DNA of 64,000 nt from Candidatus Poribacteria bacterium (GTDB lineage: Bacteria; Poribacteria; WGA-4E; PCPOR2b). Shown one piece after another: positions 1 to 52,741 of this stretch; positions within the stretch are counted from its first letter, which is position 1, and every line of letters begins with the position of its first letter. Location: positions 212,769 to 276,768 of the forward strand of contig OZ244825.1 of NCBI GenBank assembly GCA_965220385.1, in the 5' to 3' direction. The notes beneath the pieces are model-generated. The model was not told the DNA's origin and did no database searches. It worked only from the letters and a program-made list of their open reading frames with translations. Both the position numbers and the translations under genes were made by a program.

Positions 1-59
1 AGGAAAAAACTCCAAATCCCGATCCCATCGGGAGTGGTGAGGCGAGAGGTATAAACGAT

Positions 60-3931: not shown

Positions 3932-4132
3932 TAGGACTTACGCAGTTAAATGGTCAAATCCCTGTAGTTCGGGATTCATCGCCGCCGTTCCCAACGCCCG
4001 ATGAATCCCCGATGAATCGGGATTAAGAAACGGGCAACTACAGTAGGGTTTCAGGTTTGTAGTAGGGCGATTTATCGCCCGTCGTGACGCGCAATGAATT
4101 GCGCTGCTACAAACTGAACTGCGTAACTCCTA
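3932..4132. mobile_element. TA-flanked MITE (family B) with REP hairpins
   Basis: Ends TAGGACTTACGCAGTT / AACTGCGTAACTCCTA (15/16 inverted match); internal hairpins; related copies at 5245-5401 and 33605-33806. Confidence 0.75.
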
Positions 4133-5221: not shown

Positions 5222-5244
5222 CGACGTAAGGACTTTTTACTGTT

Positions 5245-5401
5245 TAGGACTTACGCAGCCAACTGTAGGCGGGGCATCTCCGATGAATCCCCGATGAATC
5301 GGGACAGGCGGGACAGGCGGGACTCCGATAAGCCGGGAGCAGGCAGGCGGGATTCAGAGCAACTTGCCCCGCACCAACTATGCTAAAATGTGCAAGTCCT
5401 A
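5245..5401. mobile_element. Family B MITE containing an interrupted GTAG-REP
   Basis: TAGGACTTACGCA ... TGTGCAAGTCCTA ends; REP halves at 5265-5279 and 5365-5372. Confidence 0.7.
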
Positions 5402-5475
5402 CTGTTATTTCCTTGCGTCTTTGTACCATTGCGACCTTGCGTTAAATATTCTTAGCACCTTTGGGGCACCAAAGA

Positions 5476-6699
5476 ATGGGTGAAACTGTGCAATCCCAGC
5501 GTAACATCTTGTACCTCGATAATGGGTCTGGCATTGGTGGTGGGCAGCGCAGCTTGCTATTGCTCCTCAAACATCTGGACGCGACACGGTTTCGCTCATT
5601 CCTCGGCTGTTTGGGAGACAGTATGCTGGCAGCGGCAGCGCGAAAAGCAGGACCCCCGGTCATCCCACTCAATCTGCCGAAGCAGCACGATAAGGGGGAC
5701 AAGGCACGCCGTTTCACACTCCACGACATCGGACGCGACCTGCAACATATCACGGTAATATTTCAGCTTTTGCGGGTGCTGGAAGAACAGCAAATCGATC
5801 TCCTCCATGCAAACTCTCTGGCTGCGGGTTTAATCGGTGGGGTTGCCGCGAAACTCTACGGCGTTCCAATCGTGATGCACAAACGGTACGCCACCGCGTA
5901 TGGCCTTTTGGATCGGATCTGTGAGGCACTGCTGGATCGTGTGATTCTGGTTTCGGAAGCAACGCGCTGGAAGTTTGCTCCACCCTCGAAGCAGGCGTTG
6001 ATCTATAACGGCGTCGAACTTTCGCCACTTCAATCCTCATCGCAAGTTGAGCGTCAGCGAAATCCCGATCTAATCGGGGTTGGACGTCAGCGAAATCCCG
6101 ATCCAATCGGGGTGGAAACGCTCCGAGCGGATCTCAACCTCGATCCCGATGCAGTGCTAATTGGTATTGTAACGCGCATCACGCCGGAGAAGGGGATTCA
6201 TACCTTAATTGAAGCAACCGCCAAACTCAAAGCATCGCCCCCTATCCAGCTGCTTGTTGTGGGCGGACCTTACTTTCCCAAAGATGCGGAATATATCGAT
6301 TCTCTGAAGGCACAAGCGAAAGAATTGGGAGTCACAGATCGTGTTATCTTCACCGGCTTTCTGGAAGATACGGGTGCGATTCTATCCCTCCTCGACATTG
6401 TTCTGCTTGCGTCAACCATCCCGGAAGCCTGCCCACGCACCATCATCGAAGCGATGGCAGCCGGTGTACCGGTCATTGCCACACCGCTCGGTGGAAGCAA
6501 GGAACTGGTAACACCGGAAACAGGACTCCTCGTCCCCGCTGAGGAGGCGGACGCCTTTGCTGCAGCGATTACCCAACTTGCCGAGGATACCGAGCGACGA
6601 AAACGGATGGGAAAGGCGTGCCGCTTGAGGGCAGAGCAACTGTTCTGTGCGACGCAGAATGCGCGGTTGACTGAAGACCTCTATTTAGATCTGTTGTGA
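5476..6699 (+). CDS. Glycosyltransferase family 4 (GT-B) with in-frame repeat insertion
   Basis: GGGQRS, IYNGV, KGIHTLIEA, EACPRTIIEAMAAGVPVIAT..GG..E. Confidence 0.9.
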   Translation: MGETVQSQRNILYLDNGSGIGGGQRSLLLLLKHLDATRFRSFLGCLGDSMLAAAARKAGPPVIPLNLPKQHDKGDKARRFTLHDIGRDLQHITVIFQLLRVLEEQQIDLLHANSLAAGLIGGVAAKLYGVPIVMHKRYATAYGLLDRICEALLDRVILVSEATRWKFAPPSKQALIYNGVELSPLQSSSQVERQRNPDLIGVGRQRNPDPIGVETLRADLNLDPDAVLIGIVTRITPEKGIHTLIEATAKLKASPPIQLLVVGGPYFPKDAEYIDSLKAQAKELGVTDRVIFTGFLEDTGAILSLLDIVLLASTIPEACPRTIIEAMAAGVPVIATPLGGSKELVTPETGLLVPAEEADAFAAAITQLAEDTERRKRMGKACRLRAEQLFCATQNARLTEDLYLDLL

Positions 6700-6854
6700 A
6701 TAGAGATTGGCAGATATGTCCTAAGACACTCCACCGTTCTTCCCCCTCATTTATTCCTTGTGGATTTTTCCTCATTCTGCTATAATCCCCCGCTAAATCT
6801 TTCAAATCTTCAGCCCAATCAGGCTTTAACAAATACGTGAGAAAGGAAACGACT

Positions 6855-8165
6855 ATGAAAAAACTTGCTTGCTATTTTGCGATACTCATGTTCTCTGTAT
6901 TAATCGTCGCAACACCATCAACAGATGCTCAAGAAAAATTAACGATTGCTTGGGCACAGTGGGATCCCGCGAACTATCTTGATGAACTGTCTAAGGACTT
7001 TACCGCGGAAACCGGGATTGAGGTCGATCTGGTTCAGATCTCTTGGTCCCATTTCCAAGATTCGGTCTTCACCGCATTTGTCGGAAAAAGTGACCGATAC
7101 GATATCGTTATCGGTGATAGCCAATGGCTTGGGAGAAACTCCGTTGGCGGTCACTATGTCGATTTGACCGACTGGATCAACGAAAACATTGATGTTGATT
7201 CGATTTACGCAACCGCCATGGAGGCATTCGCTGAATATCCGAAAGGAAGTGGAAAGTATTGGGCACTCCCCGCAGAGGTGGACGCCAACGGTTTCCTCTA
7301 TCGCACAGATCTCTTTGAGGATGCGGACGAAAAAGCAAAGTTCAAAGAAAAATATGGCTATGAGCTCGCTCCTCCTAAAACCTACGCAGAACTCCGTGAC
7401 ATTGCCGAGTTTTTTACGCGTCCCCCAAACCTCTACGGCATCGCGCCTTGGTACAGCAAAGAGTACGACGGGATCACCATGGGCTTTCAACAGGTGATGT
7501 GGTCGTACGGTGGTTCCTACGGCGATCCCGAAACCTATAAGGTGGAGGGTCACATCAATAGCGACGACGTAGTTGCAGCGCTGGAGTATTACACATCACT
7601 CAGGGAGTTCTCACCACCCGATGCACCCAACTACTACTGGGCGGAAACACTGGATGCGTTCAAAGCGGGAAAAGTTGCGATGGCGATGGACTATTTCGCC
7701 TTCTTCCCGGGGGTAGTCGATTCGAATCAGAATCCCAACTACTACGATAAAACAGGCTTCTTTGTCTCACCCGCCGGTCCGAAGGGACACGCCATCAGCA
7801 TCGGTGGTCAAGGTATGTCAATCTCTGCCTACTCCAAGAACGAAGACATCGCCAAGCGGTATCTGAAATGGTTTATGCAGAAACCGGTACAGGAAAAATG
7901 GGCGCAGCTGGGCGGGTTCACGCCGCATGAAGAGGTCCTCCAATCCGAAGTATTCCTCAACGCAACACCGTTCAACAGAGCCTTTGCTGCCAGTTTTCCT
8001 TACTTGCGTGACTTCTGGGCAGTACCCGAATACGCCGAACTTCTGGAGGCGTGCCAGACCGGATGGAACCAAGTTATCATCGGATCCAAATCTGCCAAAG
8101 AGGCGTTGGACGATATTGCGCGTAAGCATGAAGCAATCTTTGAGGACGCAGGCTATTATGACTAA
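6855..8165 (+). CDS. Sugar ABC transporter substrate-binding protein
   Basis: Signal peptide, SBP_bac_1-like motifs (YDIVIGDSQW, YRTDLF, GGQGMSI). Confidence 0.9.
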   Translation: MKKLACYFAILMFSVLIVATPSTDAQEKLTIAWAQWDPANYLDELSKDFTAETGIEVDLVQISWSHFQDSVFTAFVGKSDRYDIVIGDSQWLGRNSVGGHYVDLTDWINENIDVDSIYATAMEAFAEYPKGSGKYWALPAEVDANGFLYRTDLFEDADEKAKFKEKYGYELAPPKTYAELRDIAEFFTRPPNLYGIAPWYSKEYDGITMGFQQVMWSYGGSYGDPETYKVEGHINSDDVVAALEYYTSLREFSPPDAPNYYWAETLDAFKAGKVAMAMDYFAFFPGVVDSNQNPNYYDKTGFFVSPAGPKGHAISIGGQGMSISAYSKNEDIAKRYLKWFMQKPVQEKWAQLGGFTPHEEVLQSEVFLNATPFNRAFAASFPYLRDFWAVPEYAELLEACQTGWNQVIIGSKSAKEALDDIARKHEAIFEDAGYYD

Positions 8166-8573
8166 TGACCGATGGTGCTAATTTACAGCTATTGATACGC
8201 TCCTGAAAGTGAAACGTGAACACAGTTGGTTCATTGGGTAATTAATGAACTAGTGCTCTGGCATATAAATCATGATAAGTCTCTCACGGCTCGGCTCCGT
8301 TCCGCCTGTCCCGATTTATCGGGGAGAGTCCGAGACCCCGATAAATCGGGATTCAGAGCAACTTGGATAGCCATATCCAAGCCAGCTTTGCGGCGGTGTT
8401 GTGGATTTGTCAATCCACAACGAGCAGGGGCATTAACAATTATCTGACAATGTACTAGTGAACTAATGTACTAATGAACTCTATACGACAGTCTCACCAA
8501 CTAGCATTAAAGGTTAGTAGTATCGTTGGGAAATTAGGCTTACTGCTCACGTACCACTTGCACAGGGGAGGCA

Positions 8574-10794: not shown

Positions 10795-11050
10795 AGAAAT
10801 GGATGCACCGCTGAAAATGATTAGCAGGGGTAAAGTCCGCAGTCGTTTTCCCACCCTTCGATGGGAGTATGTTGTGGTGTTTTCCATCTTACCAAAGTTG
10901 CCCTTCGGGGCAGTGGATAGGGCGTTGTCCACTGGAGGAGACACCGTAAGATCCCGATAAATCGGGACAAGTGTCGTTGATACCACAATTCGACCTCCTA
11001 TTGACAATGGGTGAGTATCCCCAACCCTTTAGGATGTGGGAGTACGTCAA
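10795..11050 (+). mobile_element. Non-autonomous IS200/IS605-like element, TnpB omega-RNA-like right end
   Basis: Ends with hairpin TCCCCAACCCTTTAGGATGTGGGA then GTACGTCAA; upstream nested stems GGAGG/CCTCC and GACAC/GTGTC. Left boundary uncertain. Confidence 0.5.
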
Positions 11051-11156: not shown

Positions 11157-11374
11157 TAGCATGAGCCAAATAAGAAAAATAGGCTGCTCTGGGCTTTTTT
11201 AGCGAAAAAGGTAACACGAAAAAGGGAAAAGTTACACAGGTTACGGCATACGGAATTCCGCTGAATTCCCGATAAATTGTCCGATAAATCGAGGCCAGGG
11301 GGACAGGCGGTATTTCGATACGCTCAACTACAGGTTGTCTAGCAACTTGCGTTAATTATTAGACTGATATGTCA

Positions 11375-13023: not shown

Positions 13024-13428
13024 ATGTTAAAATTTCAGATGGCTCTGATGTTCCTTCTAATCGGTTGTGTCGCGGTCATGGGTTGTAGCGACTCCGCCAT
13101 GGTGGATATGATGGGCGGTATGATGGACGACGACGACGACGATATGGACGGCATGGATGACGGCATGGATGACGGCATGGACGGCATGGATGACGGCATG
13201 GACGGCATGGATGACGGCATGGACGGCATGGATGACGGCATGGACGGCATGGATGACGGCATGGACGACGGCATGGACGACGGCATGGACGACGGCATGG
13301 ACGGCATGGACGACGGCATGGACGACGGCATGGACGACGGCATGGACGACGGCATGGACGACGGCATGGACGACGGCATGGACGACGGCATGGACGACGG
13401 CATGGACGGCATGGACGACAGTCAGTAA
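13024..13428 (+). CDS. Met/Asp/Gly tandem-repeat lipoprotein (hypothetical)
   Basis: SD AAGGAG, lipobox VMGC, leader nearly identical to that of the 11693 gene; remainder is MDDG/MDG repeats. Confidence 0.75.
   Translation: MLKFQMALMFLLIGCVAVMGCSDSAMVDMMGGMMDDDDDDMDGMDDGMDDGMDGMDDGMDGMDDGMDGMDDGMDGMDDGMDDGMDDGMDDGMDGMDDGMDDGMDDGMDDGMDDGMDDGMDDGMDDGMDGMDDSQ
13144..13419 (+). repeat. Coding tandem repeat of 9- and 12-bp units
   Basis: 7x ATGGACGGC, 6x ATGGATGACGGC, 11x ATGGACGACGGC, 1 partial unit. Confidence 0.95.
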
Positions 13429-13455
13429 TTTCAACCTTGACCTTAAGGGTTGAAA
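13429..13455. terminator. Hairpin after the MDDG gene, possible terminator
   Basis: TTTCAACC / GGTTGAAA stem. Confidence 0.45.
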
Positions 13456-13496
13456 AGCCATACACCAGTTAATGCCTAACAGTATACTTGGCTTAA

Positions 13497-13623
13497 TAAG
13501 CAAGAAGCTGGTAGGTAAAACACCGGTTGTTTTGGCTTGCCTTGTCGGTAGAAGAATTTCATATGCTATAACGAGGGGTTTGAACTGTGAAATCCCTCGC
13601 TTTAGCGTGTGAAAGCATGTCAA
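13497..13623 (+). mobile_element. Short non-autonomous IS200/IS605-like element (PATE-like)
   Basis: Left hairpin after AAGAAG; right end GAAATCCCTCGCTTTAGCGTGTGAAAGCATGTCAA. Confidence 0.5.
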
Positions 13624-13628
13624 TACCT

Positions 13629-16070: not shown

Positions 16071-16099
16071 TTGACAAGACTATCATAATATGATAGTCT
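16071..16099 (+). promoter_or_regulatory. MTase promoter with embedded perfect 23-bp palindrome (candidate operator)
   Basis: TTGACA at 16071, TGn-TAGTCT at 16094; AGACTATCATA-A-TATGATAGTCT at 16077-16099. Confidence 0.75.
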
Positions 16100-16127
16100 A
16101 TACAAAATTATATTAGGAGATAAAACC

Positions 16128-18809
16128 GTGGCTCAAAAATATAAAGCTGTTTACTTTCCTGAACATCCAGCGGACACATCTCAGAAAAAATCGCTGACCT
16201 TGGCATTTGGTAAGAAAACAGATGAATTATACAAGTATGTTAAGGATCTTTCTAGTGCTGAACTCCGTCAGTTGCTACGGGAAGACTATCAAACCCTTGT
16301 GTCGAAAGCTGAAGCCGATGATTTACCACTAAACACCTATTGTCTTCGTCAATTAAAGCACACCGTAAACCTCATTCGGGAGCACGCTGTTCAGCTTCAA
16401 CTACCAGGCGTTGATGCAAAAACAGAATTATTTGATCCGGTAACTGTGACATTCAAGGGTGGCAAAAAAGAACCCTTTGCTCGATGGTATCCCTACTTAG
16501 AGGGATATTCCACTCAATTCGTGGAATCTATCTTAGAAAAGTATACTCCAAATGCACAGACTATTCTAGACCCATTTGCTGGGACGGGAACCACCGCCTT
16601 CACCGCATCACAACTTAATAAAACTGCTTATTTCTGCGAAATCAATCCTGTCTTGCAGTTTATGAGTTTAACAAAAATACGGGTCAGGCGATTAAAATGG
16701 TCTCAGCGTTCCGCGTTGGCTCGAGTGCTCACTCAAGCGAAGGTCTCATTGAATCAACTGGAAAAGTTCCCGCCAGATTATATCTTGCACCAAACCTACC
16801 TACAAACCTTTGGTAATAGTCTGTTTTTTGATGAGCCTGCTTATGACCAAGTTTTACGGGCGAAATCGTGGATTGATGAAGTGGCTCTTGAAAATCCAAT
16901 ATTGGCAGACCTGATTACTGTTGCAACCTTATCGGCACTTGTACCTGCGTCCCGAATGAAGCGAGCTGGTGATTTGAGATATAAAACGGATACAGAACTT
17001 GAGCGGCAAACAGTGCCACTCGCTGAAGGCATCCGCCAAAATATAGATCGGATAATTCATGATATTCGGGCTGATGTCGAAGGCCTGAAAACTGAGCCGT
17101 TGCTAATATGTGAAAACGCCCGTTCTTTAGGCGGCATATCTCCTCTTGGCATTGACGCTGTAGTAACAAGCCCTCCCTATGTCAACGGGACAAACTATTT
17201 TCGCAACACGAAGATGGAATTATGGTTCTTACGTTGTTTGAAAGAAAATAAGGATTTGAGAACATTTCGTGGAGCAGCCTTAACCGCTGGTATCAACGAT
17301 GTCACTGTTTCCAAAGCACTGTTACCATCTCACCCAGATGTTCAAAAAATCGTCTCTAAATTGGAACAGAATGCCTACGACTCCCGTATTCCTCGGATGA
17401 TTGCCAGCTATTTTAGCGAGATGACGGACATATTCCGGGCAATTCGTTCTCACTTAACCCCAGACGCGATGGTCGCGATTGATATCGGCGATTCTTGCTA
17501 TGCCGGCATTCATGTCCCGGTGGATACACTGCTGTCAGCCTGCTTGGATGAAATCGGTTTTGTTCAAGAGGATTCTGTAACGCTACGAAAACGCAAGTCC
17601 AGAGGCGGGATGTTGCTCAAACAGTCATTACTGGTTTTTAAGCCTGTTTCCAAACACAGAAGCTGCAATCCGCCCGAACAAGTTCCAGACTGGCGTACCG
17701 AATGGGACAGTTTCAAACAAAACCTACCTCATCAGAAAATCCCATTTACAAAACGGAATTGGGGGCATGCTTGGCACTCCCTATGTTCTTATCCCGGTAA
17801 GCTCAAACCTGCCATTGCACACCATTTGGTACGGACATTTGTTCCAGAAGGTGGACGAGTTCTAGATACTTTTGCAGGCGTTGGGACAATCCCACTTGAG
17901 GCGGCATTGGCTGGCAAACACGCCTACGGTTTTGAGATAAGTCCCGCTGCCTTTGCTATCGCTGGCGCAAAGGTTCGCCGCCCTACGGTGCTGGGTTGTG
18001 CGGCAGTTATTGAAACGTTAGAAGATTTCATCAGGTCCCACTCAACTACAGATGTAGAACTCGCTGAAGTGAATAACTTGGGTTTCAATGGCAAGATAGT
18101 TGAATATTACGAACCCCAAACCTTGAGCGAAATCATCTTGGCGCGTCGCTTTTTTCAAGTCCATCCGCCGAAGACTCCTGAAGAGCAATTTGTATGTGCC
18201 TCACTGCTACATATTTTACACGGCAACCGTCCCTACGCTCTCAGCCGCCGTTCTCATCCATTGACACCCTACAAACCAACGGGACCTTATGAGTATCGCT
18301 CGCTGATTGATCGATTACGTGCGAAAGTTGAGAGAGGGTTGGACGAAGGTTTGCCTGCGGATTTTCGTCCCGGCAAGATCTTCTTCCAAGATGCAACAAG
18401 CTGGTGGCCTCGAGAGGTTGATCAGTTGGATGCCGTTATTACATCTCCCCCTTTCTTTGATAGTACCCGATTTTATCTTGCAAACTGGTTACGGCTATGG
18501 TTTTCGGGCTGGTCTGCCCGTGATTTTGAAGCCTGTCCATCAGTTTTTGTTGATGAACAGCAAAAAAGCAGTTTTGATGTCTATATCCCGATTCTTCGCC
18601 AAGCGAAGGAACGGCTTAAATCGGATGGTGTGCTTGTGCTACATCTGGGTAAAAGTGTTAAGTGTGATATGGCTGCTCATTTACAGGAACTTGGTAAACG
18701 GTGGTTTCGTTCAACGGACCTTTTTGATGAAAGTGTTGCTCACTGTGAATCTCACGGTATCCGTGACAAGGGAACGGTTACCTCTCATCAGTATCTTGTT
18801 TTGTATTAG
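16128..18809 (+). CDS. Fused two-domain DNA methyltransferase, probably N4-cytosine
   Basis: Domain 1 DPFAGTG...SPPY; domain 2 DTFAGVG...SPPF. Confidence 0.88.
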   Translation: MAQKYKAVYFPEHPADTSQKKSLTLAFGKKTDELYKYVKDLSSAELRQLLREDYQTLVSKAEADDLPLNTYCLRQLKHTVNLIREHAVQLQLPGVDAKTELFDPVTVTFKGGKKEPFARWYPYLEGYSTQFVESILEKYTPNAQTILDPFAGTGTTAFTASQLNKTAYFCEINPVLQFMSLTKIRVRRLKWSQRSALARVLTQAKVSLNQLEKFPPDYILHQTYLQTFGNSLFFDEPAYDQVLRAKSWIDEVALENPILADLITVATLSALVPASRMKRAGDLRYKTDTELERQTVPLAEGIRQNIDRIIHDIRADVEGLKTEPLLICENARSLGGISPLGIDAVVTSPPYVNGTNYFRNTKMELWFLRCLKENKDLRTFRGAALTAGINDVTVSKALLPSHPDVQKIVSKLEQNAYDSRIPRMIASYFSEMTDIFRAIRSHLTPDAMVAIDIGDSCYAGIHVPVDTLLSACLDEIGFVQEDSVTLRKRKSRGGMLLKQSLLVFKPVSKHRSCNPPEQVPDWRTEWDSFKQNLPHQKIPFTKRNWGHAWHSLCSYPGKLKPAIAHHLVRTFVPEGGRVLDTFAGVGTIPLEAALAGKHAYGFEISPAAFAIAGAKVRRPTVLGCAAVIETLEDFIRSHSTTDVELAEVNNLGFNGKIVEYYEPQTLSEIILARRFFQVHPPKTPEEQFVCASLLHILHGNRPYALSRRSHPLTPYKPTGPYEYRSLIDRLRAKVERGLDEGLPADFRPGKIFFQDATSWWPREVDQLDAVITSPPFFDSTRFYLANWLRLWFSGWSARDFEACPSVFVDEQQKSSFDVYIPILRQAKERLKSDGVLVLHLGKSVKCDMAAHLQELGKRWFRSTDLFDESVAHCESHGIRDKGTVTSHQYLVLY

Positions 18810-21588: not shown

Positions 21589-21787
21589 CTATGATAGGGC
21601 ACATAGACATTTATATGATGAGTTATGTCTAATCGTAGGTGCTTGCAGCCCGCCTTTCCCGATTCATCGGGGATTTATCGGGGGCGCGGTTGCCTCAACC
21701 ATTGACCAACGATACAGGTTGAGTTGATTGTAGGTCGAGATTCATATCTCGACACTGAATCGTAAGTTGGTCGGTGCAATAAGGAGT

Positions 21788-33604: not shown

Positions 33605-33806
33605 TAGGAGTTACGCACTTCAGTAAGGAACAACGATCGTTTTTCCCTACGAACTGTTGATGGGACCTCTATTGTAGTTGCCCGATTCATCGGGCGTCTG
33701 TTCCGTCTGTCCCGATTCCATCGGGGAGACCAGGATTGAGAAGGGTGTTTAGCGGCGATAAATCGCCGAACTACAGGGTTTTGAACGCTCAACTGTGTAA
33801 GTCCTA
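33605..33806. mobile_element. Family B MITE, inverted relative to 3932-4132
   Basis: TAGGAGTTACGCA ... AACTGTGTAAGTCCTA; shares CCCTGTAGTTCG and CGGGCAACTACA blocks with the 3932 copy. Confidence 0.75.
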
Positions 33807-34842: not shown

Positions 34843-34887
34843 TATTTTCGTCAACTTGAAACTAATAGTTTCAAGTTGACGAAAATA
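34843..34887. repeat. Perfect 45-bp palindrome (22-bp arms)
   Basis: TATTTTCGTCAACTTGAAACTA-A-TAGTTTCAAGTTGACGAAAATA. Confidence 0.95.
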
Positions 34888-50399: not shown

Positions 50400-50631
50400 A
50401 GCAATATTGAATAATAAACTTTCGATTCTCAGTAGGTGTCGCACCCGTAGGGGCGGGGTTTCCCCGCCCGCCATCGATGTAAAATGTGCATATTTAATAT
50501 TGAAACTTGCTTATGAGAGCAATATTGAATAATAAACTTTCGATTCTCAGTAGGTGTCGCACCCGTAGGGGCGGGGTTTCCCCGCCCGCCATCGATGTAA
50601 AATGTGCATATTTAATATTGAAACTTGCTTA
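50400..50631. repeat. Two identical 114-bp copies (50400-50513, 50518-50631) of an IS630-cognate MITE with REP cargo
   Basis: Direct comparison of both copies; ends match the adjacent IS630 ends. Confidence 0.9.
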
Positions 50632-52677
50632 AAACATCTTAGACCATCTCATATTGAATTGGGGCGTCCGCCCCGACTCAATAGCTTGCGCCCAGTTTAG
50701 CTTCCAATTGTCTCCTATCAGTAAACCGGCGCCCAGATTAACCTTCGGATCAGAGGTGCTGATTTCGCCTAACTTGTCCCATACCCCGCCTGCATCCGTG
50801 AAAAATGTAACGAATACCCCGTCAATGATGTGATGACGATACTCCAAATTGAGTAGGATACCCTGGTTACCAGCAAATTCATAAAGATCATACCCACGAA
50901 GCGATCCAGGACCCCCAAGAATAAATTGACGTTGAACCGGCACCTCCTTTGCTGAAAACCCAACTTTCAAACGGAGGTCAAGCATGTGCCAATCGCCGAT
51001 AGGTTGGTAACGTCTGGAGTGTATCTCAAATCGTGTAAAATCAAAGTCAGAACCCACCGCCGAATTGCTATGCTCCACTGCAAAGGTATTGTACCAACCC
51101 TCGTTCTCAAAACGACTATCAAAATCATATCTCAAAGCGATACTCCGCATTTGTCCGGGCGTTATTGGTGTATTTTTTTCCTTGTCCGATCTCCATCGAA
51201 AGAGGGACCAATCTGTCATTTTGTTCAGGCTTTCGTGATTTTCATTGATTACAGTCAGTTTCAAGGAATGGAGGAGTACCTCCGGTTGCCATCGTAGCGA
51301 GATTTCAGAACCAGCCTTCAGATAATAATCTCGGAAGTCCCCGCCATATAACAGGGCAGTCAGAAGTTGCTCGGTATCGTCTAGTAAAATATCTGGATCT
51401 CTTACCGATGTCAGGCGATGGAATTGAAACCTAACGGTCAGATTCCGGTCAACTCCTCCTAATAATCTTGCCTCTCCACCCGCTTCATAGTTCAACTGTT
51501 TGTTTGAAAAACCGTAGCTCAAAGCCCCAAATAGCTTCGGTTGAAGCGGTATCTCAATCTCCGTAGGTTTCGACAGTTCAAGCCGGGGTCCAAGTCGTAG
51601 CCCCTGTACGCGATTAAACCCACCACTCATTGTGAGGTCCATTACGATGTCCGGTAGGATCTCGTCCTTCGCTGTATTCTCCTCCACTGTAATTGTTACA
51701 ATCCGTTTATCTTCTTCTTGATGGATATGCCAGTCCGCTCGCCTGATATGCGGAAGAATGGCCTTCATTGTTTTGATAGCATTGCTAATGTCATCTGGTC
51801 CCTTTTCAAGCGCCTCTCTGATTTCCGAAGCCTTCACTCTTTGGTTGCCTCGAATCCGAACTTCATTGATTGGTTGCTTTTCCCTATCCATAAAGTGGGT
51901 TGAAGGAAATGAGAACGCTGTGTTCCCGGAGGGTTGATCCGTGATCGAAGGGGTTACACCATTAGGTTGTTTTTCCATCGATTTTGACCGTTCTTTGATA
52001 CCAAACCCGTCTTGATGGTCTTGGAACGGGTTGTCTTCCAAGGCGTTAAGTTGTGGGATGTCCACACCAACGCCTTCAAGGTTTCTTAATAATTCACCAA
52101 TCCGTTGTGGGTGCAGATGTCCGATGATATTCACTAGATGCGCTTCGGTTTCCCCTGTGACCATTACAAAAAGTCCGTCGATTGTCTCTGTATTGAGCAG
52201 TACCCATATTTGAATCTTCTCACTGTCCTCCCTGATTTTGGCAAAGGCTTCCCAACCACGCTTTTTCAACACCCGTTCATAGTAACGGATCATTGGGTCG
52301 AAACTCGTGGCATTACCAGAGTAGCTACGGACATATACTCCCGCTAGCATTGCAATCAATTCGGAAATCTCAGGTTCTTGTTCCGTCGTTTTAGCGACGA
52401 ATGCGATTAACTCACTATCTAGGTTCACTTCGACCTTTGGCTTTAGGGGAATTGGACCATTGAAGGTGACAACACCTCCTGCTGTTTCTTCTCTTTTTCC
52501 GCCTCGTACCCAACCAAGAATGGATTCAATCTGTGGCTTTAAGGGAATCGGAAAATCGAAGGCAATAACACCTCTTGCAGCCTCTTGCGTTTTTGCAGTC
52601 TCTGCCCAGCCAAGAACAGAAAGGGAGAGAATGAGCAGTAGGAAGACGATGGAACGACAGTTTGCATAGCGTTTCAC
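50629..52677 (-). CDS. DUF4252 + single POTRA + Omp85 (BamA/TamA-like) beta-barrel fusion
   Basis: Signal peptide; DUF4252-like block; INEVRIRGNQRV; LGGPGSLRGY, FTDAG, NLGAGL, C-terminal Phe. Confidence 0.8.
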   Translation of the reverse strand: MKRYANCRSIVFLLLILSLSVLGWAETAKTQEAARGVIAFDFPIPLKPQIESILGWVRGGKREETAGGVVTFNGPIPLKPKVEVNLDSELIAFVAKTTEQEPEISELIAMLAGVYVRSYSGNATSFDPMIRYYERVLKKRGWEAFAKIREDSEKIQIWVLLNTETIDGLFVMVTGETEAHLVNIIGHLHPQRIGELLRNLEGVGVDIPQLNALEDNPFQDHQDGFGIKERSKSMEKQPNGVTPSITDQPSGNTAFSFPSTHFMDREKQPINEVRIRGNQRVKASEIREALEKGPDDISNAIKTMKAILPHIRRADWHIHQEEDKRIVTITVEENTAKDEILPDIVMDLTMSGGFNRVQGLRLGPRLELSKPTEIEIPLQPKLFGALSYGFSNKQLNYEAGGEARLLGGVDRNLTVRFQFHRLTSVRDPDILLDDTEQLLTALLYGGDFRDYYLKAGSEISLRWQPEVLLHSLKLTVINENHESLNKMTDWSLFRWRSDKEKNTPITPGQMRSIALRYDFDSRFENEGWYNTFAVEHSNSAVGSDFDFTRFEIHSRRYQPIGDWHMLDLRLKVGFSAKEVPVQRQFILGGPGSLRGYDLYEFAGNQGILLNLEYRHHIIDGVFVTFFTDAGGVWDKLGEISTSDPKVNLGAGLLIGDNWKLNWAQAIESGRTPQFNMRWSKMF

Positions 52678-52741
52678 GGTTTGTTTTTTCCTTCTTATTG
52701 AGGTGTGTAGCTTACCTTGTCATTATCATGTTTTGTGAGAC

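Follow-up and report, generated by a model that had tools for sequence, protein, structure and literature searches.

How does a conserved enzyme come to carry, in the linker between its two domains, a short peptide written twice over by a DNA palindrome? The question is raised by a glycosyltransferase (GT) gene in a stretch of 64,000 nucleotides from a Candidatus Poribacteria bacterium (contig OZ244825.1; hereafter the window), in which two tandem 33-nt units are read through in frame. Our analysis makes it highly probable that this 66-nt insert is a tandem pair of copies of a selfish micro-element resembling repetitive extragenic palindromes (REP), lying in frame in the inter-domain linker of a GT4 enzyme, and that it is a smaller instance of the phenomenon known from the Rickettsia palindromic elements (RPE). 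The repeated unit, termed here unit A, is a member of a family of very small, hairpin-forming dispersed repeats that is abundant in one clade of the sponge-symbiont Candidatus Poribacteria.

A tandem pair of 33-nt units in the linker of a GT4 enzyme

The features of the locus are as follows.

5476..6699, + strand: GT4 (GT-B fold) glycosyltransferase gene, 407 aa from the ATG at 5476, with an alternative TTG start at 5461; host of the insertion
6043..6046, + strand: CAAG, present in empty and filled alleles (DNA alignment) and the conserved left flank of most Poribacteria unit A copies
6047..6079, + strand: unit A copy 1, 33 nt, TTGAGCG-TCA-GCGAAAT-CCCGAT-CTA-ATCGGG-G, with its main hairpin at 6064-6078
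6080..6112, + strand: unit A copy 2, 33 nt, TTGGACG-TCA-GCGAAAT-CCCGAT-CCA-ATCGGG-G, with no CAAG before it

The original prediction, made from the letters of the window, had described two tandem units at 6052-6084 (CGTCAGCGAAATCCCGATCTAATCGGGGTTGGA) and 6085-6117 (CGTCAGCGAAATCCCGATCCAATCGGGGTGGAA), each containing CCCGAT-N3-ATCGGG and both translated in an open frame. This description is accurate: the units are identical at 30 of 33 positions and encode RQRNPDLIGVG RQRNPDPIGVE, preceded by IYNGVELSPLQSSSQVE, in the open reading frame (ORF) 5461/5476..6699(+). When the empty allele of relatives and the family consensus are taken as guides, the natural register lies 5 nt to the left of 6052/6085, at 6047-6079 and 6080-6112, where both units are 33 nt of the TTGAGCG...ATCGGGG type and follow a pre-existing CAAG (6043-6046), a candidate target or junction microhomology. 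Copy 1 carries the mini-hairpin GCGTCAGC at 6051-6058; copy 2 has GGA where the 5' block of the family consensus has GAG, a change that disrupts the mini-hairpin. In ViennaRNA folds computed with DNA parameters, copy 1 is predicted to form both hairpins, and the four single-unit folds have z-scores of -0.95 to -2.1. A search of the window with a 32-nt consensus, allowing up to three mismatches, recovered these two places and no other (0 expected, from 100 shuffles), and Tandem Repeats Finder run on the window did not report the two-copy 33-nt array.

The GT4/GT-B class of the host protein is borne out by both Pfam domains (Glyco_transf_4, residues 20-183, 6.2e-12; Glycos_transf_1, residues 214-383, 6e-37) and by solved relatives in the PDB, namely 4XSO (the best, E=1.9e-24), 3C4Q and 3OKA. 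As predicted, the insert follows IYNGV at the GT-B inter-domain linker: its 22 residues (193-214) occupy the gap between the two Pfam domains, and PDB alignments of the C-terminal domain begin at residue 213-214. An AlphaFold2 (AF2) model, built on a shallow 40-sequence alignment and used only for local confidence at the insert, gives a predicted local distance difference test (pLDDT) score of about 30 across the insert, with a helix at 210-219 following it.

Empty and filled alleles among orthologues

Protein and DNA alignments of 80 syntenic orthologues (L001-L080), all from Candidatus Poribacteria and the nearest 94% identical, revealed a series of states at this one site. The window and L001 have two units; L002 and L003 have a single unit; and L005 and L007 have one unit in which an extra 21-nt repeat, B, is nested in the 5' arm of the palindrome. 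The alleles of L004, L006, L008-L010 and L012-L016 are empty, reading ...TCATCGCAA GTG GAAACC... (the CAA-GTG-GAA site). Another palindrome, CCCCCCCGC-TG-GCGGGGGGG, gives L011 and L017 a net gain of 18 nt, L019 carries yet another, different insert at the same spot, and L018 and L020-L080 have nothing inserted there. In orthologues without the segment the linker is IYNGV-12 aa-ETLR, as long as in 4XSO, which has the same count of 12 residues from IYNG to the next helix. The gap of 11-22 aa that had been predicted in orthologues was therefore found, with 0, 1 or 2 units in close relatives and no segment in the distant and many of the close loci; no distant orthologue had an equally long linker of this sequence. 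Every outgroup lacks unit A, and hence its absence is the ancestral state.

A wider view was obtained from the 119 nearest protein clusters at 90% identity. Empty alleles account for 40 of these and a G/C palindrome, family D, for 56; unit A is present once in 16, twice in 3, with B in 3, and with B and a further module C in 1 (+25 aa). The DNA of this last allele (L138/P0114), read directly, places the 21-nt module C inside B. The insert lengths at the GT site (18, 21, 21, 33 and 33 nt) are all multiples of three. Two-copy alleles are confined to the closest relatives (L001, P0016 and P0017) and, as the two-copy allele was seen in four different sequences from separate assemblies, it is no artefact.

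Comparison of filled with empty alleles shows 33 nt added between CAAG and TGGAA with no target-site duplication. The junction is ambiguous within CAAGT because the family consensus itself starts (C)AAGTTGAGCG; indeed, the empty site CAAGTGGA matches the 5' end of the element, CAAGTTGA, at 7 of 8 positions. The second unit is probably a tandem duplication of copy 1 rather than a second insertion, since it has no preceding CAAG, its 5' block is off consensus and two-copy alleles are limited to the closest relatives. Of the two insertions originally envisaged, the first is retained and the second is better replaced by a local duplication. A neighbour-joining tree with bootstrap, on a 1549-aa concatenate, places the empty L004 as sister to the window, L001 and L003 (94% and 100% bootstrap), which fits one insertion in the subclade.

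A dispersed family of hairpin-forming repeats

The consensus of the unit A family reads (C)AAGTTGAGCG-N(N)A-GCGAAAT-CCCG..CGGG and can be divided into a 5' block, (C)AAGTTGA; a mini-hairpin, GCG-N(N)A-GC; a spacer, GAAAT; and a hairpin whose CCCG/CGGG foot is invariant and whose inner stem covaries. A scan for the pattern GCGAAATCCCGATNNNATCGGG, with one genome per species across the genome collection, returned 57 loci against about 4 expected by chance, and about 44 of the 57 also have GTTGAGCG-N(N)A directly upstream, which the pattern does not force. Many of them are Poribacteria loci outside the GT gene; there are also 12 copies in one Chitinophagaceae metagenome-assembled genome (MAG), 4 in a Verrucomicrobiales MAG, and single copies in MAGs of Ignavibacteria, Armatimonadetes, Bacteroidia and Neomarinimicrobiota and in a gammaproteobacterial MAG. 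When the 5' block served as anchor (CAAGTTGAGCG-N2-3-GCGAAAT), at least 116 loci were recovered against about 35 expected by chance, with at least 67 distinct copies then continuing into a hairpin with the CCCG/CGGG foot. Among the matches listed, the inner stem covaries (CCCGC/GCGGG in 22, CCCGAT/ATCGGG in 14, CCCGA/TCGGG in 6, plus others) and 59 of 67 copies have N(N)A as the gap, giving a centre of GCGNAGC or GCGNNAGC; GCGAAGC, GCGTAGC, GCGCAGC, GCGTCAGC and GCGTAAGC all fit this motif exactly. The palindrome singled out by the original prediction is part of the element, whose conserved portion also includes the 5' block, GTTGAGCG-N(N)A-GCGAAAT.

In Poribacteria, unit A lies mostly between genes; the copies face either way relative to the genes beside them, and many are flanked by short covarying inverted sequences. 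The composite of A and B is found again outside the GT gene, at L187, L207 and L208, B in each case following the CCCG of A's arm, and family D is present at 8 other loci. A search against Rfam 15 gave no hit in the window or in the insert region scanned by itself, only a tRNA in 8 related loci and a negative result for the Desulfobacterales element described below; the highest score below threshold was that of RAGATH-7, 19 bits where the cut-off is 111.8. We found no description of these repeats from Poribacteria in the literature, a search for palindromic sequences in this phylum returning papers on clustered regularly interspaced short palindromic repeats (CRISPR) only. The related word TGAGCGAAGCGAA may adjoin multicopy GIY-YIG genes; a literature search for the word returned unrelated papers only.

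In several other lineages the unit stands within larger repeats. The twelve copies of the Chitinophagaceae MAG S7_bin.6 (L084, L090-L092, L100, L104, L105, L113, L115, L119, L123 and L124) lie inside a longer conserved repeat (..ATCATCGTCTGTTGTTGAGCGAAGCGAAATCCCGATGMAATCGGGACGGCGCATTATTAACCCAACTGCATTACT..), which alternates with related modules such as TGAGCGAAGTCGAAGG, and a Neomarinimicrobiota MAG has four head-to-tail 40-nt copies (CAAGTTGAGCGAAGCGAAATCCCGACGGATGTCGGGAAGC) at L229 384-545. In Desulfobacterales MAGs the motif is found within a dispersed element of about 245 nt that has internal stems with compensatory and G-U-compatible changes, an AT-rich 3' hairpin, and a closing helix or 15-bp terminal inverted repeats (AACCTAAGTTGAGCG / CGCTCAACTTAGGTT). 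No conserved neighbouring gene accompanies this element, and a coding reading of its motif (KQVERSEIP...) was rejected as no forward-orientation ORF of at least 80 aa covers the motif. Its loci are:

L242, about 6420-6670, - strand: element of about 245 nt
L150, L151, L155, L172, L201, L203, L213, L221, L222 and L231: further loci of the same element

Coding insertions in other genes

The GT gene is one of several to have been entered by unit A. Of 17 copies sampled from the MAG SRP119689_co1_304, to which L019 also belongs, 9 are located well within ORFs of at least 200 aa and read QVERSEIP(Q/R)SG, KLSEAKSR or, in antisense, ..GGISLRST... The loci of the coding copies (CAZOAL01...) are:

L149, L157, L174, L175, L196, L204, L215 and L230: coding copies of unit A in SRP119689_co1_304

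Besides the GT, at least 8 further genes of this related MAG carry unit A in frame, and most of the hosts could be matched to known gene families by Pfam and PDB searches. They comprise a protoporphyrinogen oxidase, whose alignment with 3I6D has a gap of 11 residues; two Reg_prop/HisKA (hybrid histidine) kinases; a TonB-dependent receptor; a beta-helix protein; and a Gfo/Idh/MocA oxidoreductase, whose insert separates the first strand-helix from the second strand. A GH31 enzyme is the host in a Bacteroidales MAG. The likeness to RPE that had been proposed, of a much shorter coding-insertion element in another lineage, is supported by these dispersed copies and in-frame hosts. Within the clade to which the window belongs, copies of the family are chiefly intergenic and REP-like.

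A second loop of the GT also receives repeats: in the distant Poribacteria L048 and L070, the loop after ...LRAELF has in-frame inserts from other hairpin repeats of the GTAG type, GTAGGCGAGGTTTCTAACCGCGCC and GTAGTAGCGCAATTCATTGCGC.

Origin and movement of the insert

Comparison of the alleles shows that one copy of unit A went into the GT4 gene at ...CAAG|TGGAA..., leaving no target-site duplication, in the loop joining the N- and C-terminal Rossmann-like domains. With its length of 33 nt and no stop codon in the frame of the gene, the unit kept the gene open, and the insert was presumably tolerated because the linker is a permissive surface loop. The unit would then have doubled in tandem with a period of 33, probably by slipped-strand mispairing or unequal exchange. 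In some lineages the 21-nt repeats B and C later became nested inside unit A, and in others the unrelated G/C palindrome of family D occupies the same site. We infer that the insert is selfish or neutral DNA and not a designed part of the enzyme.

It is tempting to speculate on how so small a unit could move. Our guess, to which we would give rather less than an even chance, is that unit A is mobilized in trans as single-stranded DNA (ssDNA) by an HUH/Y1 enzyme similar to those of IS200/IS605 elements or to REP-associated tyrosine transposases (RAYT). Such an enzyme would recognise the two hairpins and insert 3' of a short specific sequence. Of the readings of movement, this one fits best because there is no target duplication, the short left flank is conserved, nesting occurs at fixed positions and two ssDNA hairpins are predicted. 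Two insertion events can be read, A after CAAG and B after CCCG, both without duplication and with a junction ambiguous by at most 5 nt. HUH enzymes exist in the clade, since a close Poribacteria relative has a complete IS200/IS605 element, with Y1_Tnp (1.3e-36) and TnpB:

L194, 5500-7540, - strand: complete IS200/IS605 element, with tnpA at 6783-7193 and tnpB at 5560-6777

The end hairpins of this insertion sequence (IS) are ATCCCCG..CGGGGAT and CCTCG..GCGGGG, its terminus is TATGTCAAC, and some 300 nt upstream the same strand carries a unit A copy, enclosed in a GGGCAACC/GGTTGCCC stem. The main alternative is a replication template-switch, which would be guided by the microhomology between the empty site and the 5' end of the element.

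Several observations weigh against this overall account. No transposase or other gene was recurrently present beside unit A copies when ORFs within 0.4-1.5 kb were clustered, the clusters consisting only of housekeeping genes and spurious ORFs over repeats; nor was anything convincing found in a search for an autonomous version with inverted 5'-block copies flanking an ORF. A phmmer search with Y1 seeds over the Poribacteria loci (about 2 Mb, scattered) identified one IS200/IS605 tnpA and no RAYT. The end hairpins of the L194 IS differ from those of unit A, and its nearness to a unit A copy is a single case. The AF2 model is poor overall (mean pLDDT 57), such that the description of the insert as a disordered surface loop rests mainly on the domain boundaries, and the peptide is known here from its DNA. 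Furthermore, the alleles bearing unit A do not track the tree, L007 (A+B) being sister to the empty L008 with 99% bootstrap, and pairwise divergence among seven alleles is 6.7% in the insert compared with 14.8% in 300 nt of flanking coding DNA.

The mismatch between alleles and tree requires, besides one insertion, recombination, precise loss or repeated insertion. Every GT allele has the rare GCGTCAGC variant, and most other sampled copies have a 2-nt gap, which would make a 32-nt, frame-breaking unit. A single origin at the GT site followed by recombination or precise loss appears more likely, on the basis of these sequences, than repeated insertion.

The low divergence of the insert could leave room for constraint, and hence function, or for recent spread. 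The former leads to the rival that survives best, although we regard it as unlikely: that the insert has been exapted, its hairpin or peptide being kept by selection as a longer hinge that would adjust how the two GT-B domains open and close, or as an mRNA/DNA structure that would slow translation or transcription where the domains meet. Consistent with such a role, the RQRNPDPIG peptide is almost invariant in the 16 one-copy clusters, the hairpin is intact in nearly all alleles and the two-unit RNA fold has a z-score of -2.2. However, the single-unit z-scores are modest, relatives with 83-86% identical enzymes are entirely without the insert, and others have an unrelated palindrome or more nested repeats in its place, so that no particular sequence or length is required. 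The low divergence itself is equally explained by young age, by spread through recombination or by homogenisation against genomic copies.

A much less probable proposal, to which we attach very little weight, derives unit A from part of a structured RNA gene or of an RNA-level mobile element (small and ribozyme-like, or a retroelement-derived three-way junction) spreading through an RNA intermediate, the GT copy having been retro-inserted. The Desulfobacterales element of about 245 nt, with its compensatory stems and closing helix or terminal inverted repeat, and the many Poribacteria copies lying between short covarying inverted flanks would suit such an origin, as would a layout (outer stem, conserved strand, GNRA-like mini stem-loop, GAAA, hairpin) that is superficially hammerhead-like. 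Nevertheless, Rfam offers no match, no reverse transcriptase lies nearby, copies are in mixed orientation relative to neighbouring genes, and GCGNAGC is best known as a DNA, not an RNA, hairpin. A hammerhead proper, suggested by the succession of NGA, short GNRA stem, GAAA and hairpin, is ruled out: the CUGANGA core and the A15.1-U16.1 pair are absent from the sequence and the Rfam hammerhead models give no hit.

A purely local origin, in which slippage or duplication of the native linker combined with a genomic word preference for the palindrome and no mobile element took part, is the least credible of all: the second unit does resemble a local tandem duplication (exact period of 33, no CAAG before it) and the empty site does resemble the 5' end of the element, but the empty allele holds no precursor of the 33-nt unit, near-identical units, including the non-palindromic 5' block, lie at dozens of unrelated loci and in other phyla, and the nested B and C modules are dispersed repeats too.

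A classical miniature inverted-repeat transposable element does not fit: the GT site shows no duplication, and apart from its internal hairpin the unit lacks terminal inverted repeats, which the 245-nt Desulfobacterales relative does have.

Related repeats and other features of the window

The surroundings of the GT gene are rich in similar hairpins. With a spacer of N0-12, the CCCGAT..ATCGGG palindrome occurs 11 times in the 64-kb window against 0.11 expected, and 9 of the 11 hairpins are intergenic; more generally, 34 of 52 perfect hairpins with a stem of at least 7 bp fall in the 14% of the window outside ORFs. Two recurrent types, B (CCTGTCCCGAT-NN(N)-ATCGGGG) and C (CCTGCTCCCGGCTTATCGGAG), are found in intergenic regions of the window.

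18..32, + strand: CCCGATCCCATCGGG hairpin, upstream of the ATG at 60 of a Uma2-family gene
4008..4021, + strand: CCCGATGAATCGGG hairpin, intergenic, with a tandem 11-nt copy before it
5276..5356, - strand: composite of B (CCTGTCCCGAT-TC-ATCGGGG) and C (CCTGCTCCCGGCTTATCGGAG), intergenic
8305..8350, + strand: two CCCGAT-NN-ATCGGG hairpins, intergenic, the first of type B with a CCTGT left flank
10953..10966, + strand: CCCGATAAATCGGG hairpin, intergenic
11312..11328, - strand: decayed unit A 5' block, intergenic, GTTGAGCGTATCGAAAT then ACCGCCTGTCCCCC (regular expression, up to 3 substitutions)
21658..21671, + strand: CCCGATTCATCGGG hairpin, intergenic, with a tandem 11-nt follow-on
33681..33725, + strand: two CCCGAT-N2-3-ATCGGG hairpins, intergenic, the second of type B

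The B and C modules at 5276..5356 are the same as those nested in unit A in the GT genes of relatives (L005, L007 and L138/P0114). Orthologous spacers of close genomes (window 5222-5475 and 8166-8573 compared with L001-L018) range from 28 to 712 nt between tsaE and the GT gene and from 56 to 765 nt 3' of the solute-binding protein gene, on account of differing mixes of small repeats. Repeats in these spacers include AGGACTTACGCAG..., AAGTCCCCCTGACAAGGGGGATTTAGGGGGTT and GGTGCGGTT-NNN-AACCGCACC.

Other structures were encountered in the window. At 4060-4112 a pair resembling REP doublets (REPIN), GTAGTAG-GGCGATTTATCGCCC and GCGCAATGAATTGCGC-TG-CTAC, forms opposed hairpins with outward GTAG/CTAC, the hallmark of RAYT-type REP. 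A perfect tandem duplication of a 118-nt unit at 50400-50631, with the hairpin GGGCGGGGTTTCCCCGCCC in each copy, adjoins a 696-aa ORF (50629-52719, - strand), and an array of period 12 nt at 13147-13419 (GACGGCATGGAC, about 24 copies, 86% matches) overlaps an ORF (13057-13626, - strand) that has no Pfam hit. An intergenic 45-nt perfect palindrome with a 21-bp stem (TATTTTCGTCAACTTGAAACTAATAGTTTCAAGTTGACGAAAATA) lies at 34843-34887. The 906-aa protein with an N6_N4_Mtase (DNA methylase) domain encoded at 16089-18809 and the Uma2-family putative restriction endonuclease encoded at 60-524 are possible restriction-modification or defence functions.

Wider implications

Taken together, these observations invite a broader view, which we hold tentatively and think less likely than not: unit A may be the minimal module of an undescribed family of ssDNA-structured micro-elements, present in many phyla, spreading in a sequence-targeted and duplication-free manner and, in some lineages, routinely writing new 11-aa loops into proteins that are conserved in other respects. 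The module would consist of the mini-hairpin GCGN(N)AGC, GAAAT and the CCCG-foot hairpin, and its movers could possibly be host or IS-encoded HUH enzymes or the replication machinery. A module shared across phyla and containing a known ssDNA mini-hairpin gives a concrete handle on how gene-less micro-repeats move.

If our account is true, few of the selfish repeats known to add peptide segments to conserved proteins would be as small as unit A. Its stepwise insertion is visible across close relatives, from an empty site to one unit and then two, or to one unit and then one and two nested repeats. REP-like elements regarded as extragenic can colonise coding sequence, given a length that is a multiple of three and a permissive loop. 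For annotation, spurious indels and low-complexity loops in MAG proteins may stem from such elements; for protein engineering, the occupied sites are naturally validated, insertion-tolerant positions in GT-B enzymes and other folds.

Comparison with known systems

RPE (Ogata et al. 2000 Science 290:347, as summarised in PMC10969869) are palindromic selfish repeats lying in frame in coding genes, with a size of about 100-150 bp and a peptide of 30-50 aa. Unit A likewise is a dispersed, palindromic and apparently selfish repeat that enters unrelated genes in frame, adding peptide at what appear to be permissive surface positions, and roughly every second copy sampled from one related MAG is intragenic, a proportion comparable to that reported for RPE. 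It differs in its size of 32-33 nt (11 aa), about a quarter of that of RPE; in its occurrence in Poribacteria and other phyla instead of Rickettsia, with no known sequence relationship, such that the two are likened at the level of the phenomenon; in being mainly intergenic in the window's own clade; and in its nested micro-repeats and tandem duplication inside a gene.

REP and REPIN are imperfect palindromes mobilised by RAYT (Y1, IS200-like) transposases, with GTAG 5' of the palindrome (PMC3116915). Unit A resembles them as an imperfect palindrome of about 20-40 nt with hundreds of mostly extragenic copies, in clusters and nested intergenic arrays, and in the absence of an obvious target duplication; moreover, other repeat families of the window and its relatives carry the REP-typical 5' GTAG. 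In place of GTAG, however, unit A has GTTGAGCG-N(N)A-GCGAAAT; it occurs in single units, with no inverted partner near most copies, and the GT copies are a direct tandem and not a REPIN doublet; no flanking RAYT gene was found beside it in the sequence examined; it is conserved across phyla, whereas REP are usually species-specific; and the GT copy is intragenic and translated.

The small dispersed repeats (SDR) of heterocystous cyanobacteria, which Elhai et al. are said to have described in 2008, are reportedly mainly intergenic and similar to unit A in being a few tens of nucleotides long, hairpin-forming, nested in each other and in other repeats and without a known transposase. Their sequence and lineage are different, and we know of no report of cross-phylum conservation or of a mini-hairpin module among them.

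With the ends of IS200/IS605 elements unit A shares a subterminal hairpin whose foot is separated from a short conserved left-flank sequence by about 16-19 conserved nt. IS200/IS605 elements and their gene-less derivatives, the palindrome-associated transposable elements, insert 3' of a specific short sequence and duplicate no target; the two readable events may be consistent with this, and a family member with both tnpA and tnpB was identified in a close relative. Unlike these elements, unit A is one 33-nt end-like module with no second end, and the hairpins of the IS that was found differ from its own.

Finally, GCGNAGC and GCGNNAGC are mini-hairpin DNA, an exceptionally stable ssDNA hairpin (Hirao and co-workers; PMC13037366), whose natural examples are the primase sites of G4-type phages and ssiA of RSF1010 (PMC13037366). 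Among the matches listed, 59 of the 67 copies of unit A have a variable centre that conforms exactly to this motif. Where the known examples are priming sites on ssDNA phage and plasmid, unit A is a dispersed chromosomal repeat in which the same hairpin is predicted to form.

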